Assembly: GCA_040223615.1 (NCBI GenBank)
Contig: JAVKFY010000011.1
Coordinates: 125,169-189,168 of the forward strand
Direction of reading: 5' to 3'
Length of the DNA stretch: 64,000 nt
Source: Alphaproteobacteria bacterium
GTDB taxonomy: Bacteria > Pseudomonadota > Alphaproteobacteria > GCA-2731375
Shown here: positions 47,689 through 61,106 of the stretch, piece by piece
Layout of the letters: each line of letters begins with the position of its first letter
Position numbering within the stretch: position 1 is the stretch's first letter
Notes under the pieces: model-generated
What the model saw: only the letters and a program-made list of their open reading frames with translations
The model's database searches: none
What the model was told of the DNA's origin: nothing
Position numbers and translations under genes: made by a program

Positions 47689-48852
47689 CTACTTCCCCTC
47701 CAGGTGATCCAGCACGCGGCCGATGAGCTGGCTGCACTCGGCGATCTGGCTTTCCTCGACGAATTCGTCGGGCTTGTGCGCCTGCTCGATGTTGCCGGGG
47801 CCGCAGACCACGGCGGGCACGCCGACGCCCTGGAACAGACCGGCCTCGGTGCCGTAGCTCACCGCATAGGTCTGGTTCGAATTGGCCAGCGCCAGCATCA
47901 AGGACTCCCACGAGCCGCCCTCGTCAGGCAGCAGGCCAGGCACCTCGGCACGGATCTCGTGCGTGATGTCGGCTTGCGGGTGGACCTTGCGCATGCGCGG
48001 CACCACCTCGTCGGCGCAGTAGGTCTTGAACCGCTCGAACACGTCGCGCGGGTTCATCTGCGGCACGGCGCGGCATTCCCAGGTGAAGCGCGATTGCTTG
48101 GGGATGATGTTGGGCGCGGTGCCGCCCTTGATCAGGCCGACGTTGATGGTCGAATAGGGCGGATCGAAACGTTCGTTCTGGAACGCCGGCGCCTTGTATT
48201 CCTCGGCCATGCGGGCGAGCTCGGCGATCAGCTCCGCGGCATACATGATCGCGTTAACGCCCTGGTGGGTCTTGGAGGAGTGCCCTTCCAGGCCATGCAC
48301 CGTGGTGTGCACGCCGATCGAGCCCTTGTGCGCGTTGACCACCGAGAGGTCAGTCGGCTCGCCGACGATCACCGCGCGCGGCCGCACCGGCAAACCCTCG
48401 ACATGTTCGACCAGCCCGCGCGCGCCGAGGCAGCCGACCTCCTCGTCGTAGGACAGCGCAAAGTGGATCGGCCGGTTGAGCTGGCGCTTGTTCATCTCCG
48501 GCACGGCGGCGAGCGCGCAGGCGATGAAGCCCTTCATGTCGGCGGTGCCGCGGCCGAACAGCTTGCCGTTGGCCTTGCGCACCTCGAACGGATTGGACGA
48601 CCAGTCCTGACCGTCGACCGGCACCACGTCGGTATGGCCGGAGAGCACGATGCCGCCATCCGCCACCGGGCCGACCGTGGCCCACAGGTTGGCCTTGTTG
48701 CCGGTCTCGTCGTGGATCAGGTCGCTGGCGACGCCATGGTCGGCCAGGTAGTCGCGCACGAAGTGGATCAGTTCGAGGTTGCTCTCGCGGCTGGTGGTGT
48801 CAAACGCCACCAGACGGTCGAGCATCTCGACGGGGGAATAGACCGCAGCCAT
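47689..48852 (-). CDS. argE: acetylornithine deacetylase (M20 peptidase family)
   Basis: 387 aa from MAAVYSPVEM; GGAGCA RBS; M20 metal-binding H/D/E pattern; rest of 814-aa track ORF is artefact. Confidence 0.85.
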   Translation of the reverse strand: MAAVYSPVEMLDRLVAFDTTSRESNLELIHFVRDYLADHGVASDLIHDETGNKANLWATVGPVADGGIVLSGHTDVVPVDGQDWSSNPFEVRKANGKLFGRGTADMKGFIACALAAVPEMNKRQLNRPIHFALSYDEEVGCLGARGLVEHVEGLPVRPRAVIVGEPTDLSVVNAHKGSIGVHTTVHGLEGHSSKTHQGVNAIMYAAELIAELARMAEEYKAPAFQNERFDPPYSTINVGLIKGGTAPNIIPKQSRFTWECRAVPQMNPRDVFERFKTYCADEVVPRMRKVHPQADITHEIRAEVPGLLPDEGGSWESLMLALANSNQTYAVSYGTEAGLFQGVGVPAVVCGPGNIEQAHKPDEFVEESQIAECSQLIGRVLDHLEGK

Positions 48853-52542: not shown

Positions 52543-52617
52543 GCGGGCGTAGTTCAGTGGTAGAACGTCAGCTTCCCAAGCTGAATGTCGTCGGTTCGAT
52601 CCCGATCGCCCGCTCCA
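52543..52617 (+). tRNA. tRNA-Gly (anticodon CCC)
   Basis: Cloverleaf folded by hand: acceptor GCGGGCG/CGCCCGC, anticodon loop TTCCCAA, T-arm GGTTCGATCC, CCA encoded. Confidence 0.85.
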
Positions 52618-56304: not shown

Positions 56305-56805
56305 CTAGTTGCCGTCGTCGTCTTCGGTCTCCCAGCCACGCACGGTGTCTTCCAGTTTGCGTAGCAGACGGCGCAGTTGCCGCTCTTCGGTGTCCGACAG
56401 CGCCGAAAACAGTGTGCGCTCGCGCGTCTTGGCGGCCGGCGCAATGGCCAGAAAGACCTCGCGGCCATCCGGGGTCAGGCGCAACAGGGTCCGGCGGCGA
56501 TCGCCCGGATCGGGATCGCGGCTGATCCGGCCCATCGACGTCATCCGGCGCACGGCGCGGGAAATGCTCATCTTGTCGATGCCGATGAGCTGCGCCAGTT
56601 CGTGCGCTGCCAGGCCAGGGTAGCTCGCCAGCGCCATCATCACCCGCCACTCATTCAGTGTAAGTGAATATTGTTTTGAGAAACGCAGATTGAACGGCTT
56701 CGCGGTCAGGTTCACCAGGCGCATGAACTGGAAGAAGGGCGAATCGTCGATCGAAATCGGGTTGGTGACGTGTTTGTCGTCGGTCGAGTTCTGCTCGGCG
56801 TCCAT
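56305..56805 (-). CDS. MarR-family transcriptional regulator
   Basis: Winged-helix segment LTLNEWRVMMALASYPGLAAHELAQLIGIDKMSISRAVRRM; start at Met11 preceded by AAAGGAGG. Confidence 0.85.
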   Translation of the reverse strand: MDAEQNSTDDKHVTNPISIDDSPFFQFMRLVNLTAKPFNLRFSKQYSLTLNEWRVMMALASYPGLAAHELAQLIGIDKMSISRAVRRMTSMGRISRDPDPGDRRRTLLRLTPDGREVFLAIAPAAKTRERTLFSALSDTEERQLRRLLRKLEDTVRGWETEDDDGN

Positions 56806-57294
56806 GCCTTGGCAGCCTCCTTTATCGTTAAGCATTACTAATCTAAAACTCGCAATCCCGTCGCATTCTAGGGGGTCGGTACCATCTAAGATACCAGTGC
56901 CATTCGGCCTCCCCTTCGTAACGTCAACGGCCCTGGCGCCGGTTGGTTCATTCGGGCTACCCGAACGCCACCCAATTCATGACGAATCCACGCAAAATCA
57001 CCATGTTGTTAACCAATTAGAGACAATCGCAGAATAGTTTGAACCTGCATCCCCGTGCATTCCCCGAGTTGCCGCGTACTGGCCGCCCCCATCCGGGAGC
57101 GGCCAGATGGTGACTCCTGGATTCAAACATCAATATCATCAAATATAACTTCGTTAACCATTTCGTCACAACTACAACGTATAATTGATATTGCGTTGAG
57201 TACGAAGCTGACGCTGCGTTTCCGCGCCAGCCGACAAGAACAAGGTCGTCTCGTTGCGTTCGAGTACCCGAGTATAGAATGAAAGACTTCATAA

Positions 57295-57329
57295 GCGACC
57301 GTCGTAATCGGCGGTCGCTTAATTCTCTT
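57295..57329 (+). terminator. intrinsic terminator inside island (GCGACCG-N9-CGGTCGC then TTAATTCTCTTT)
   Basis: Seen in sequence, plus-strand orientation. Confidence 0.4.
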
Positions 57330-57557
57330 TAGAATTTCTTCATCAATAAAAAACGAATACCGCTGTCGCTACAGGCGACGTGACAATCGACACGGCAGCC
57401 CGGTGTGCCGTGGCGCGATACGGCGCGCAGGGCGAGGCAGCGGATTATCGCTAGCGCTTGAAAGCATACACAAAGGGCACGAATGGTCCCGTTGTTAACT
57501 ATTCATCAACGGGGCACTGGTACGGTTCTGCTTGCCACCCAAGCACACCACACGACT

Positions 57558-57587
57558 CAGGCCGCCTTTCCGGGCGGCCTCTTTCTT
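57558..57587 (+). terminator. intrinsic terminator inside island (AGGCCGCC-TTTCC-GGGCGGCCT then CTTTCTT)
   Basis: Seen in sequence, plus-strand orientation; may also act bidirectionally for trpE(G). Confidence 0.4.
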
Positions 57588-57652
57588 GCCTGCAGGTCCT
57601 GCCAAGCCCGCCGCGTGGCGGACTTAAGTAGCATTACCTAGCGAATCGCCGC

Positions 57653-59812
57653 CTATTCGGCGGCCCGCGCCGGCACTTCGATCAGTTCGCGAAGTGCGTT
57701 TTCGACCAGGCGATGACCGGCCCGCTGGTCCAGCGACAGTATCGACTCCGGGTGAAACTGCACCGCGGCCAGCGGCGCGGAGCGGTGTCGCACCGCCATA
57801 ACCAGCTGGCGCTCATTGCGTGCGGTGACATGTAGCTCCGCCGGCACCTTGGCCTCGACGGCGTAGAGTGAATGGTAGGCGCCGACCTGAGCCGGGTTCG
57901 GCAGTCCCTCGAACAGGCCGGAGCCGTCATGTGCCAGAGTCCAGCGCTTGCCGTGGCGCGGCTCCGGCAGGATGCCAAGCTCGCCGCCGAACGCCTCGAC
58001 CATCGCCTGCAGGCCGAGGCAGACGCCGAATTGCGGCACGCCACGGTCCGTCAGCGCGCGGATCAGCTCCGGCGCGCCGAAGTCTGACGGTCGGCCCGGC
58101 CCCGGCGAATGCACCACCAGCGCCGGCCGGTCGCGCAGCAGGCGGTCGACCGCGGTGCCGGCGCGGAAAGTGGTCACCTCGGCGCCGGTCTGGCGGAAAT
58201 AGTCGGCCAGCGTGTGAACGAAGCTGTCCTCGTTGTCGACCATCACCACGCGCACGCCGGCGAAAGGGCGCTCCGGTTCCGGCTCGGCGGCGCGGACGCT
58301 GCCACCCTCCATGGCGCGGAAGAACGACGTCGCCTTGGTACGGGTCTCCTGCTCCTCCTCCTCCGGCACCGAGTCGAAGACCAGCGTGGCGCCGGCGCGG
58401 TAGTGGGCGCGGCCGTCGCGCAGGTGCACGGTGCGGATGGTGATGCCGGTGTTCACGTTGCCGTTCAGCGACAGGACGCCGACAGCGCCGCCGTACCACT
58501 GCCTGGCGGTCGCCTCCATGTCCTCGATCAGGCGCACGGCCATGCGCTTGGGCGCGCCGGTGAGCGTCACCGCCCACATGTGGCTGAGAAAGGCATCGAT
58601 GCCGGTGAAGCCCTCGCGCAACCGGCCCTCGACATGATCAACGGTATGGATCAGGCCGGCGTAGCGCTCGATGTTGCGCCGGGCCAGCAACTTGACCGTA
58701 CCGGGCCGGCAGATGCGCGCCTTGTCGTTGCGGTCGACGTCGGTGCACATGGTGAGCTCGACCTCGTCCTTCTCGGAGTTGAACAGGGCCTTCAGACGGT
58801 CGGCATCCTCCATCGGGTTGGCGCCGCGACGCACGGTGCCGCAGATCGGCGCGGATTCGACCCGGTCGCCGTCGACGCGTACGAACATCTCCGGCGAGGC
58901 GCCGACAAGCTGTTCGTCGCCGAGCTGGAACAGGAATTCGTAAGGCGACGGGTTGATCCGCCGCATCGAGCGGAACAGTGCCGACGGGGCGCCGCGAAAC
59001 GGTGTCGAGAAGGTCCGGCTCAGCACCACCTCGAAGATGTCGCCGACGCGCATGTGTTCCTTCGCCTTGGCCACGTTGGCCTGGTATTCGGCGTCGGTGA
59101 GGTCGGAAACGATGCCGCCCTCCTCGACCGGCCGCTCCTGGCCGAAGGGCGCTTCCGGCCGGGTCGCCATCACCCCCTCGGTGGTGACGGTGCCGAGCTG
59201 GAAAGTGAAGTGGTGGCAGGTCGCGGTCTCCTTGTGCCGATCGACCACGTAGACCCGGTCGGGCAGGAACAACTTCAGGATCGGCCGCTCGGGCTCGCGC
59301 GCCTGGCTCAACCGCATCGGCTCGAAGGTGAAGATCAGGTCGTAGCCGAAGGTGCCGAACAGCCCCAGGAAGGGATCGGGGTAGCCTTCGAACTCGGCCA
59401 GCAGGCGGCGGATCGGGCTCAGCACGGAGGGCTGGCGGCTGCGGTCCTCTTCCGCGAACACCACCTCGGCGCGGGCGATGCGCAGCTTCAGGACGGTGTC
59501 GTCCTGGTGTTCCACGGTGGTCTCCGGCCCGGCGACCAGGATCGGCGTGAGCAGCTTCAGCAGCGGCCGGCCGACCTCGTTCAGCGCCGTCACGGTCAGG
59601 GTCTCGGCGGTGCCCTCGAAGCCGAGCGGCGGCGAGGCGAAGCCCATGTCGAAGCGCGAATACTTGTCCGGATCCTCCACGCCGGAGGACAGGTAGGCGC
59701 CGGGCTCGCGGTCGAGCCGGTCGATCAGGTTGTCGATACCCTGCTCATAGGGCAGGTCGATGATCTCGCGGCCGACGCGCAGGCCGCTGGGGGCAATGAA
59801 TGTCTCGGTCAT
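57653..59812 (-). CDS. trpE: anthranilate synthase, fused component I / glutamine amidotransferase, TrpE(G)
   Basis: 719 aa; chorismate-binding domain plus C-terminal class I GATase with catalytic Cys (GVCLG) and His (VQFHPES). Confidence 0.93.
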   Translation of the reverse strand: MTETFIAPSGLRVGREIIDLPYEQGIDNLIDRLDREPGAYLSSGVEDPDKYSRFDMGFASPPLGFEGTAETLTVTALNEVGRPLLKLLTPILVAGPETTVEHQDDTVLKLRIARAEVVFAEEDRSRQPSVLSPIRRLLAEFEGYPDPFLGLFGTFGYDLIFTFEPMRLSQAREPERPILKLFLPDRVYVVDRHKETATCHHFTFQLGTVTTEGVMATRPEAPFGQERPVEEGGIVSDLTDAEYQANVAKAKEHMRVGDIFEVVLSRTFSTPFRGAPSALFRSMRRINPSPYEFLFQLGDEQLVGASPEMFVRVDGDRVESAPICGTVRRGANPMEDADRLKALFNSEKDEVELTMCTDVDRNDKARICRPGTVKLLARRNIERYAGLIHTVDHVEGRLREGFTGIDAFLSHMWAVTLTGAPKRMAVRLIEDMEATARQWYGGAVGVLSLNGNVNTGITIRTVHLRDGRAHYRAGATLVFDSVPEEEEQETRTKATSFFRAMEGGSVRAAEPEPERPFAGVRVVMVDNEDSFVHTLADYFRQTGAEVTTFRAGTAVDRLLRDRPALVVHSPGPGRPSDFGAPELIRALTDRGVPQFGVCLGLQAMVEAFGGELGILPEPRHGKRWTLAHDGSGLFEGLPNPAQVGAYHSLYAVEAKVPAELHVTARNERQLVMAVRHRSAPLAAVQFHPESILSLDQRAGHRLVENALRELIEVPARAAE

Positions 59813-59995
59813 GACGGTTCTCTGGACGGAAGCGATCCGGCGCGGGCCGGACGTCGATAGGGGCAGTTGGCTGATAGCGCGCCTTGGCGGGCGTCGCGCG
59901 GACCCTTCAGATGAGCGTCACCAAGGACAACGGACGGACCGCGGCTCGGCGAGGCCGGCGATAGCGGGGCGGATCCATCCTGGGGTACTCATGGG
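59813..59995 (-). promoter_or_regulatory. trpE(G) leader region with candidate 24-codon leader peptide (MSTPGWIRPAIAGLAEPRSVRCPW, ATG near 59992) and downstream GC hairpins
   Basis: Own translation of minus strand; two Trp codons, one immediately before the stop; coordinates approximate to within 2 nt. Confidence 0.3.
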
Positions 59996-60908: not shown

Positions 60909-61106
60909 CTACAGCACGAACAGGAACAGCAGGATCACGCCGACGGCGGCGAACTGCAGCAGCACGCGCAACTGCATGAGCTTGTTGGAGCGCCGGTGTT
61001 TCTCCACGCTATCGCCGTCGCGCGCCATGGTGACGACGCCGAACAGCAACACGCCGACAATCGCCACCAGCAGCACGACCATCACGATCGGCAGGGCGGC
61101 GCTCAT
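60909..61106 (-). CDS. twin-transmembrane-helix small protein (65 aa)
   Basis: Two hydrophobic helices separated by MARDGDSVEKHRRSNKLMQLR. Confidence 0.65.
   Translation of the reverse strand: MSAALPIVMVVLLVAIVGVLLFGVVTMARDGDSVEKHRRSNKLMQLRVLLQFAAVGVILLFLFVL

Follow-up and report, generated by a model that had tools for sequence, protein, structure and literature searches.

Between the marR and trpE(G) genes of an alphaproteobacterium lies an 847-nt gap (56806-57652) that contains no gene, and this gap is probably a conserved, clade-specific and so far unannotated locus of two or three small RNA (sRNA) genes on the plus strand. The gap was analysed within a 64-kb stretch of DNA with a GC content of 68%, referred to here as the window, and compared with its counterparts in two related lineages. 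We favor the sRNA locus because predicted terminators lie on the plus strand in all three lineages and show compensatory changes, because a set of GTTAAC boxes is conserved, and because no open reading frame (ORF) is conserved. A preliminary description of the sequence had suggested a structured sRNA locus, divergent from marR and equipped with repeated regulator sites, and the results presented below fit this suggestion. As an sRNA locus, the gap would be a new RNA family of a familiar, ordinary kind.

Conservation of the gap in three lineages

The MarR protein encoded in the window is 100% identical to one annotated from an alphaproteobacterial metagenome-assembled genome (MAG). Other MarR protein clusters at 83-87% identity number only five, and the next one follows at 55%. 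Contigs encoding two of these five clusters (MarR 86-87% identical) have kept the order trpE(G)-gap-marR. We refer to the relatives as lineage B (L001-L004 and L015, an 'uncultured Rhodospirillales' MAG) and lineage C (L010-L014); both are uncultured and Rhodospirillales-like. Metagenomes that contain these lineages are SRR34438647, SRR26283956, SRR35907253, ERZ23498758, and JGI 3300044450. The P0050 contig stops within trpE(G). According to the preliminary description, the interval had to be compared with that of close relatives, where it might be absent or shorter. It was present in both relatives, with a length of 819-820 nt in lineage B versus 843 nt in lineage C.

Across the three lineages, the pairwise identity of the gap was only 43-50%, and 29% of the alignment columns were identical in all three. 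At such low identity, what stays conserved is informative, and conservation was indeed confined to islands. These comprise the three GTTAAC boxes, the hairpins of two predicted terminators (T1 and T2), an invariant 16-mer, a -10-like element upstream of marR, and approximately 12 nt directly after the trpE(G) stop codon. Further conserved blocks are GCATCCCC, GTTGCCGCGTAC, GCTGCGTATC, and GCTGCGT(A/T)TC.

Among the internal stretches of the window that measure 150 nt or more, the gap alone has no stop-to-stop ORF of at least 120 codons, and its earlier classification as a non-coding island was borne out. A small conserved ORF was considered and rejected: the three-lineage alignment revealed 1-2-nt indels within candidate ORFs, even between close lineages, and translated similarity between the lineages showed no preference for a frame or strand. 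Several frames on both strands gave matches in the same DNA blocks, which is the signature of conservation at the nucleotide level. The GC content of the whole gap was 52.9%, compared with 68% in the flanks. A value of about 45%, originally assigned to the entire interval, holds for its core only, as 45-46% was reached solely in 200-nt segments within 57000-57300. The reported drop to less than 35% around 57120-57200 was confirmed (31%).

A genome scan with TrpE(G) yielded one close genome only, which belongs to the lineage of L002, and the next-closest proteins found were at most 65% identical. At the other TrpE(G) loci, neither the element (nhmmer) nor a nearby MarR homologue (tblastn) was detected. 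The module of marR plus gap therefore belongs to one small clade. A metagenome scan with the MarR alignment returned solely relatives of 45-51% identity in other gene contexts, and the pattern GGTGTGCTTGGGTGGC-N28-40-GTTAAC gave 0 matches in the metagenome scan. A second copy was absent from both the window and 138 fetched loci, and BLASTN searches with the gap gave no match among plasmids or phages.

Predicted terminators on the plus strand

The two plus-strand intrinsic terminators named in the preliminary description were recovered by a consensus scan, in which a GC-rich stem-loop followed by a U-rich tract was found in both cases on the plus strand. Predicted terminator T1 (57292-57331) consists of a 13-bp stem (57292-57321) and the tail AATTCTCTTT, with a folding energy of -23.1 kcal/mol and z = -7.1. 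Predicted terminator T2 has its stem at 57559-57580, followed by the tail CTTTCTT, and the RNA would end at 57588. Although their stems differ in sequence, both hairpins fold in each of the three lineages (-16 to -30 kcal/mol), and compensatory changes occur in the stems between lineages. In lineage C, T1 has a 14-bp stem of another sequence, followed by TTTTT (tail UUUUUGG), and in lineage B, T2 has the tail UUUUCUCUU. Examples of complete hairpins are GCAGCGGCCATCC-ACCC-GGATGGCCGCTGC-TTTTTGG in lineage C and AGGCCGCCC-TTCG-GGCGGCCT-TTTCTCTT in lineage B. The T-rich run was located on the plus strand of the window in every lineage; the minus strand displayed A-runs before the hairpins and no U-runs after them. 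Downstream of T1, a poorly conserved spacer of variable length (57332-57492, not assigned to a strand; 157-177 nt in the three lineages) extends to the third GTTAAC box.

GTTAAC boxes and promoter-like modules

GTTAAC occurs in the gap at 57008, 57153, and 57494, each time as a plus-strand YGTTAACY. When the gap itself was dinucleotide-shuffled, 0.23 copies were obtained on average (p = 0.002). With at most one mismatch, GTTAACCATT was observed four times versus an expected 0.05, a count reached in 0 of 5000 shuffles. The three motif copies noted previously are thus in excess over chance in the shuffled-sequence test. All three boxes are conserved in the three lineages. The only other GTTAAC in the 64 kb is located at 48253, in GC-rich sequence outside the gap, and in the relatives' loci the motif is limited to the gap, with a single exception in L010. 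In lineage B, the variable spacer that separates T1 from box 3 contains a fourth GTTAAC, GCCGGTTAACCC (L001:3007-3012; L002:7467-7472), and no -10-like element follows it 21 nt downstream.

Each of the three boxes in the window is part of a promoter-like module on the plus strand, in which a 21-nt spacer separates GTTAAC from a -10-like hexamer. Module P1 (57007-57040) contains the box TGTTAACC (GTTAAC at 57008-57013) and TAGTTT (57035-57040). The box of P2 (57152-57185), CGTTAACCATT, is followed by TATAAT (57180-57185). In P3 (57493-57526), the box TGTTAACT is embedded in TTAA-N7-TCAAC (57495-57510) and the hexamer is TACGGT (57521-57526). The dinucleotide TA was therefore present 21 nt after GTTAAC in three of three cases in the window (p = 1.5e-4, and p = 3.7e-6 for TAnnnT). 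The same was true of lineage B, with TAGCCT, TAAGAA, and TAAATT (p = 8.5e-5). Only one of three boxes conformed in lineage C (p = 0.11): TATAAG was found at 21 nt, TATCTT at 22 nt, and CAAGCT fails. At P1, the distance from GTTAAC to TA is 21 nt in the window, likewise 21 nt in lineage B, and 22 nt in lineage C; the hexamer of P2 reads TATAAT in the window, TAAGAA in lineage B, and TATAAG in lineage C. No TTGACA-like hexamer was present 16-18 nt upstream of the -10-like elements, and a sigma-70 scan made no call there. Because all boxes share one orientation, a -35 hexamer is missing, and the spacing is fixed in the window and lineage B, the box appears to be an integral promoter element and, most simply, an activator site. 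It is probably bound by a transcription activator that replaces the -35 contact. Readings of the box as a site for an extracytoplasmic function (ECF) sigma factor, as an FNR/FixK box, or as a sigma-70 -35 element were rejected by eye because of misfits in spacing or sequence.

In each of the three lineages, the invariant 16-mer follows the hexamer at a distance of exactly 7 nt. The block GCATCCCC, which reads GTATCCCC in lineage C, likewise begins 7 nt after the hexamer of P1. Since conserved blocks begin at this distance from the -10-like hexamer, we infer start sites at approximately 57047 (P1), 57192-57193 (P2), and 57534 (P3).

Predicted RNAs

The shortest predicted transcript, an sRNA of about 55 nt, would extend from P3 to T2 (57534-57588, plus strand) and consist of a 16-nt 5' end followed by T2. 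This 5' end is the 16-mer GCCACCCAAGCACACC (57534-57549, plus strand), which is identical in all three lineages and largely unpaired in predicted folds. From P2 to T1, an RNA body of about 140 nt (57192-57331, plus strand; z = -2.6) is predicted, which carries the conserved block GCTGCGT(A/T)TC. The same body would also form the 3' half of a third transcript: there is no terminator between P1 and P2, so that transcription from P1 may read through to T1. The resulting RNA of about 285 nt (57047-57331, plus strand) folds with z = -5.1.

The 5' domain of the predicted P1 RNA (57047-57121, plus strand) comprises a C-rich single-stranded leader, GCAUCCCC..GCAUUCCCC, and a long hairpin (57066-57116) that encloses an inner hairpin (57079-57106). 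The outer stem of the long hairpin covaries, as judged by eye, with GAGUUGCCG/UGGUGACUC in the window versus GGCCGUUGCCG/UGGCAACGGCC in L010 of lineage C, and is weaker in lineage B. A nested stem-loop had been described here before. Its inner hairpin was found again; its outer stem, GTTTGAACC/GGATTCAAAC, is present as well but not conserved, and the 5' arm of this stem overlaps the -10 element proposed for P1. A long-range pairing of 57068-57076 with 57222-57229, suggested by RNAalifold, was discarded, as it showed no covariation and the local stem 57066-57116 is better supported.

Between P1 and T1, the motif YGCGTW occurs in four to five copies on the plus strand and in none on the minus strand of each lineage, compared with an expected 0.5-0.9. 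The copies in the window start at 57073, 57192, 57215, and 57255 and span 57073-57260. Their positions are partly homologous between lineages and partly not, and in lineage C the repeats include a tandem duplication (AGAGTAGTTGCGTA x2). This distribution argues for a motif of the plus strand that acts at the RNA level. The repeats could possibly be a protein-binding or multi-seed motif of the P1-T1 RNA.

The best predicted site for the 16-nt seed in the window coincides with the first codons of an unlisted 65-aa ORF (60909-61106, minus strand) with two hydrophobic helices. This ORF, which is presumably HIG1-like, is located upstream of a cobalamin adenosyltransferase-like gene. A viral scan with the 16-mer gave 38 matches, which is about the chance estimate, and none of them had flanking similarity.

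BLASTN and Rfam searches of the interval, as proposed in the preliminary description, returned no Rfam, plasmid, or phage match. With Rfam 15, the whole window contained a tRNA-Gly at 52543 as its only match at the gathering threshold. When the gaps of the window, L001, and L010 were compared permissively with Rfam, all matches were sub-threshold and driven by the terminators, and no family recurred in all three. All weak sRNA-like matches at T2 in L001 were on the plus strand, the strand that also bears the U-tails. We therefore rejected a known RNA family, as nothing was at or near an Rfam threshold and nothing recurred across the lineages.

Flanking regions and neighboring genes

Both flanking genes are encoded on the minus strand. 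The marR gene (56305-56805) starts with ATG at 56805 and is preceded by the ribosome-binding site AAGGAGG (56817-56823). Its putative promoter and 5' untranslated region (UTR) occupy 56806-56905 of the minus strand, with a -10-like TAGAAT that corresponds to ATTCTA at 56865-56870 of the plus strand; the element reads TAAATC in lineage B and TATACT in lineage C. The palindrome ATCTAAGAT (56884-56892) lies over the -35 position of this putative promoter, is conserved in lineage B, where it reads TATCTTAGATA, and is partly kept in lineage C. It is a better candidate for MarR autoregulation than the GTTAAC boxes. When the MarR protein of the window was compared with named equivalogs, none matched; the best was BilQ with 50.5 bits versus a cut-off of 125.

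On the opposite side, the conserved block at 57641-57655, assigned to neither strand, covers approximately 12 nt directly after the stop codon of trpE(G) (57653-59812, minus strand) in all three lineages. It reads TAGGCGGYGATTCG on the minus strand and contains a GANTC site. A 24-codon ORF with two Trp codons, MSTPGWIRPAIAGLAEPRSVRCPW, is located at 59918-59992 of the minus strand, with its end some 105 nt upstream of trpE(G). This ORF possibly encodes a leader peptide and has no Rfam match.

Bordering direct repeats of 25-30 nt had been claimed for the gap. Their best local alignment was the 8-mer AGCATTAC, and 8.5% of arbitrary pairs of 50-nt segments within the gap aligned equally well or better. 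The border sequences on either side showed no conservation in the relatives, and the repeats, being at chance level, were rejected as a target-site duplication. The palindrome with divergent ATGs, ATGAAAGACTTCAT, is indeed present at 57279-57292 and is specific to the window, that is, not conserved. An alphaproteobacterial replication origin was likewise rejected, as the gap contains no DnaA box (with at most one mismatch) and no GC-skew switch.

The genes beyond marR are a cupin gene and dctPQM in the window and lineage B, and a SIR2 and Piwi pair in lineage C. In the latter (L010:9120-12343), the genes after marR encode a SIR2_2-domain protein of 598 aa and a Piwi-domain protein of 476 aa, which look like a short prokaryotic Argonaute defence pair at the place where the window and lineage B have cupin and dctPQM. 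A CoA-transferase gene is located 64 nt after trpE(G) in L100 (L100:6184-7453), whose TrpE(G) is 65% identical, and beyond marR, cupin, and dctPQM in lineage B (L001:7843-9039). The different positions of this gene suggest that a block of gap and marR, with or without the cupin and TRAP transporter genes, was inserted in the ancestor of the clade.

Discussion

In the model that we favor, transcription of the sRNA locus would be divergent from that of marR and convergent with that of trpE(G). It would be driven by three promoters in tandem that lack a -35 hexamer and in which a -10-like TAnnnT follows the YGTTAACY box after 21 nt; T1 and T2 would close the transcripts. The products would be RNAs of approximately 55, 140, and 285 nt, and the invariant, unpaired 5' end of the 55-nt RNA would serve as a base-pairing seed. 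The box would be bound by an activator in place of the -35 contact, for which a CtrA-type response regulator is the best candidate. Provided that the sRNA locus is real, we tentatively put forward a CtrA-type protein as this activator; MarR appears less likely as the protein that reads the box, and what remains falls to another factor.

Several points weigh against the model. Every start site, and transcription itself, was deduced from the nucleotide sequence. Two of the patterns on which we draw were recognized post hoc: the spacing between box and TA, which emerged when nine boxes, three per lineage, were lined up, and the accumulation of YGCGTW. The independent lineages number three, and statistics of covariation are weak. 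Lineage C fits more poorly, with CAAGCT instead of TAnnnT at P3 and with a weak inner hairpin (57079-57106), which is stable in the window and lineage B. The 3' end of the P1 RNA is uncertain because no terminator separates P1 from P2. Finally, no significant target of the 16-nt seed was found in the window; the best duplex (-33 kcal/mol) was matched by 10 of 27 shuffled seeds.

The most serious competitor of an activator site is a role of the GTTAAC boxes as MarR operators. Bound MarR would cover the -35 region of the three plus-strand promoters and free them on binding a ligand; the sRNAs would represent the divergent partner genes of marR, and the ligand might relate to the neighboring cupin and TRAP transporter genes. 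In line with this idea, the pairing of marR with the gap is preserved in the three lineages even as the gene content beyond marR changes, and in the sequence examined the boxes were found near marR only. The GTTAAC core is palindromic, and MarR operators usually are palindromic, too. The motif TYGTTAACY, however, is asymmetric and has a single orientation throughout, and a constant 21 nt to the -10 element, the distance seen in the window and in lineage B, is what one would expect from a promoter element or the site of an activator but not from a repressor operator. Moreover, the putative promoter of marR itself has no conserved GTTAAC and instead carries the different palindrome ATCTAAGAT. 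Distant MarR homologues (45-58% identity) have other neighbors, and the upstream region of L095, the sole one read, is devoid of the box. We consider MarR operators an unlikely explanation.

Action of the conserved elements on the minus strand, either in co-transcription of trpE(G) and marR or in a long marR leader, is improbable. It would turn the hairpins into attenuators or processing sites and the G/U-rich complement of the 16-mer, GGUGUGCUUGGGUGGC, into an element of the trpE(G) 3'-UTR. Both flanking genes do lie on the minus strand, and T2, some 70 nt beyond the stop codon of trpE(G), occupies a position expected of a terminator for this gene; the hairpin could work bidirectionally. Yet in all lineages the A-run is upstream of both hairpins, so that the U-tail is on the plus strand and a U-tract is missing on the minus side. 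The geometry of box, -10 element, and conserved block works on the plus strand only, YGCGTW is specific to that strand, and marR possesses a separate -10-like element at 56865-56870. The preliminary description had also proposed a remnant of a horizontally acquired or recombined element. Even less credit is due to such a decaying remnant of an acquired or mobile element, whose motifs and hairpins would have no present function. This reading draws on the GC content of 53% versus 68% in the flanks and on the absence of marR plus gap beside trpE(G) in all more distant relatives, such as L100. Conservation in islands at 43-50% identity argues against a recently acquired or decaying remnant, since the place, length, order, and orientation of the elements were kept in three lineages while unconstrained positions are near random. 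Furthermore, the border repeats are due to chance, terminal inverted repeats are absent, and neither a second copy in the window or the 138 loci nor a plasmid or phage match was obtained. A low GC content is also expected of promoters and U-rich terminator tails. We regard a remnant as very improbable, and the case illustrates that intergenic islands of low GC content in GC-rich genomes are not necessarily foreign DNA.

If the sRNA locus is transcribed as predicted, it adds two or three sRNA families that are new to the databases, from a sparsely sampled clade of uncultured alphaproteobacteria. The clear-cut promoter design predicted here lacks a -35 hexamer and combines a box at about -39 with a 21-nt spacing that recurs in three modules; it could be searched for genome-wide to define a regulon. 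The practical value is modest, as the organism is uncultured and the kind of element familiar. A more far-reaching version, which we offer as speculation with little expectation that all its parts hold, is a tandem sRNA module of uncultured Rhodospirillales driven by a CtrA-type regulator, in which the turning-over YGCGUW repeats of the 285-nt RNA titrate an RNA-binding protein and the 55-nt RNA acts via its seed. If true, this module would be a cell-cycle- or motility-linked riboregulatory unit of an undescribed family.

Comparison with known systems

Like MarR loci with a shared intergenic region, the locus has marR divergent from the candidate targets and repeated sites with a palindromic core between them. 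It differs in that the divergent targets would be non-coding RNAs and not an efflux or catabolic operon. In addition, the sites are 200-690 nt away from the marR start codon and strictly phased with the -10 elements of the plus strand.

The motifs of CtrA are TTAA-N7-TTAA, the half site TTAA, and the ungapped TTAACCAT, and activating sites are located near -35 (PMC6180460). In the Caulobacter ctrA P2 promoter, the 5' nucleotide of the full motif is at -39; half-motif activators of Caulobacter sit over the -35 region, and six non-coding RNAs have CtrA motifs (PMC4287350). The modules described here share with CtrA-activated promoters a TTAAC-containing site at the place where a -35 hexamer would stand. 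Motifs of the type TTAA-N7-TTAA(C) or ungapped TTAACCAT were found: the box of P2 contains an exact TTAACCAT, P3 has TTAA-N7-TCAAC, which agrees in eight of nine specified bases, and P1 has TTAACCAA. P3 was the only match to TTAA-N7-TTAA with at most one mismatch in the window and in each relative's locus. Counted from the proposed start sites, the first T of the motif would be at -39/-38 and an A at about -11. Other features count against CtrA. P1 and P2 have poor second half-sites, the conserved extra G, the flanking Y, and the preceding TY are outside the published consensus, and the GTTAAC core is itself palindromic. Furthermore, no other CtrA-type sites of this kind were found in the 64 kb. 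The boxes resemble CtrA sites, and the link is one of resemblance, not of demonstration.

With respect to the RNAs themselves, the best Rfam match was SorY, with 19.4 bits versus a gathering score of 111, and was due to the terminator alone. The CA-rich seed GCCACCCAAGCACACC also differs from the CCUCCUCCC type of alphaproteobacterial sRNAs. CcnA of Caulobacter is a CtrA-controlled non-coding RNA. In its architecture, the locus is akin to the genes of trans-encoded sRNAs such as SorY, AbcR, and the CcsR/cuckoo RNAs: it is intergenic and would consist of several stand-alone sRNA genes in tandem on one strand, whose RNAs would combine a short body and a conserved stretch of unpaired sequence with a GC-rich hairpin that ends in a U-tail.

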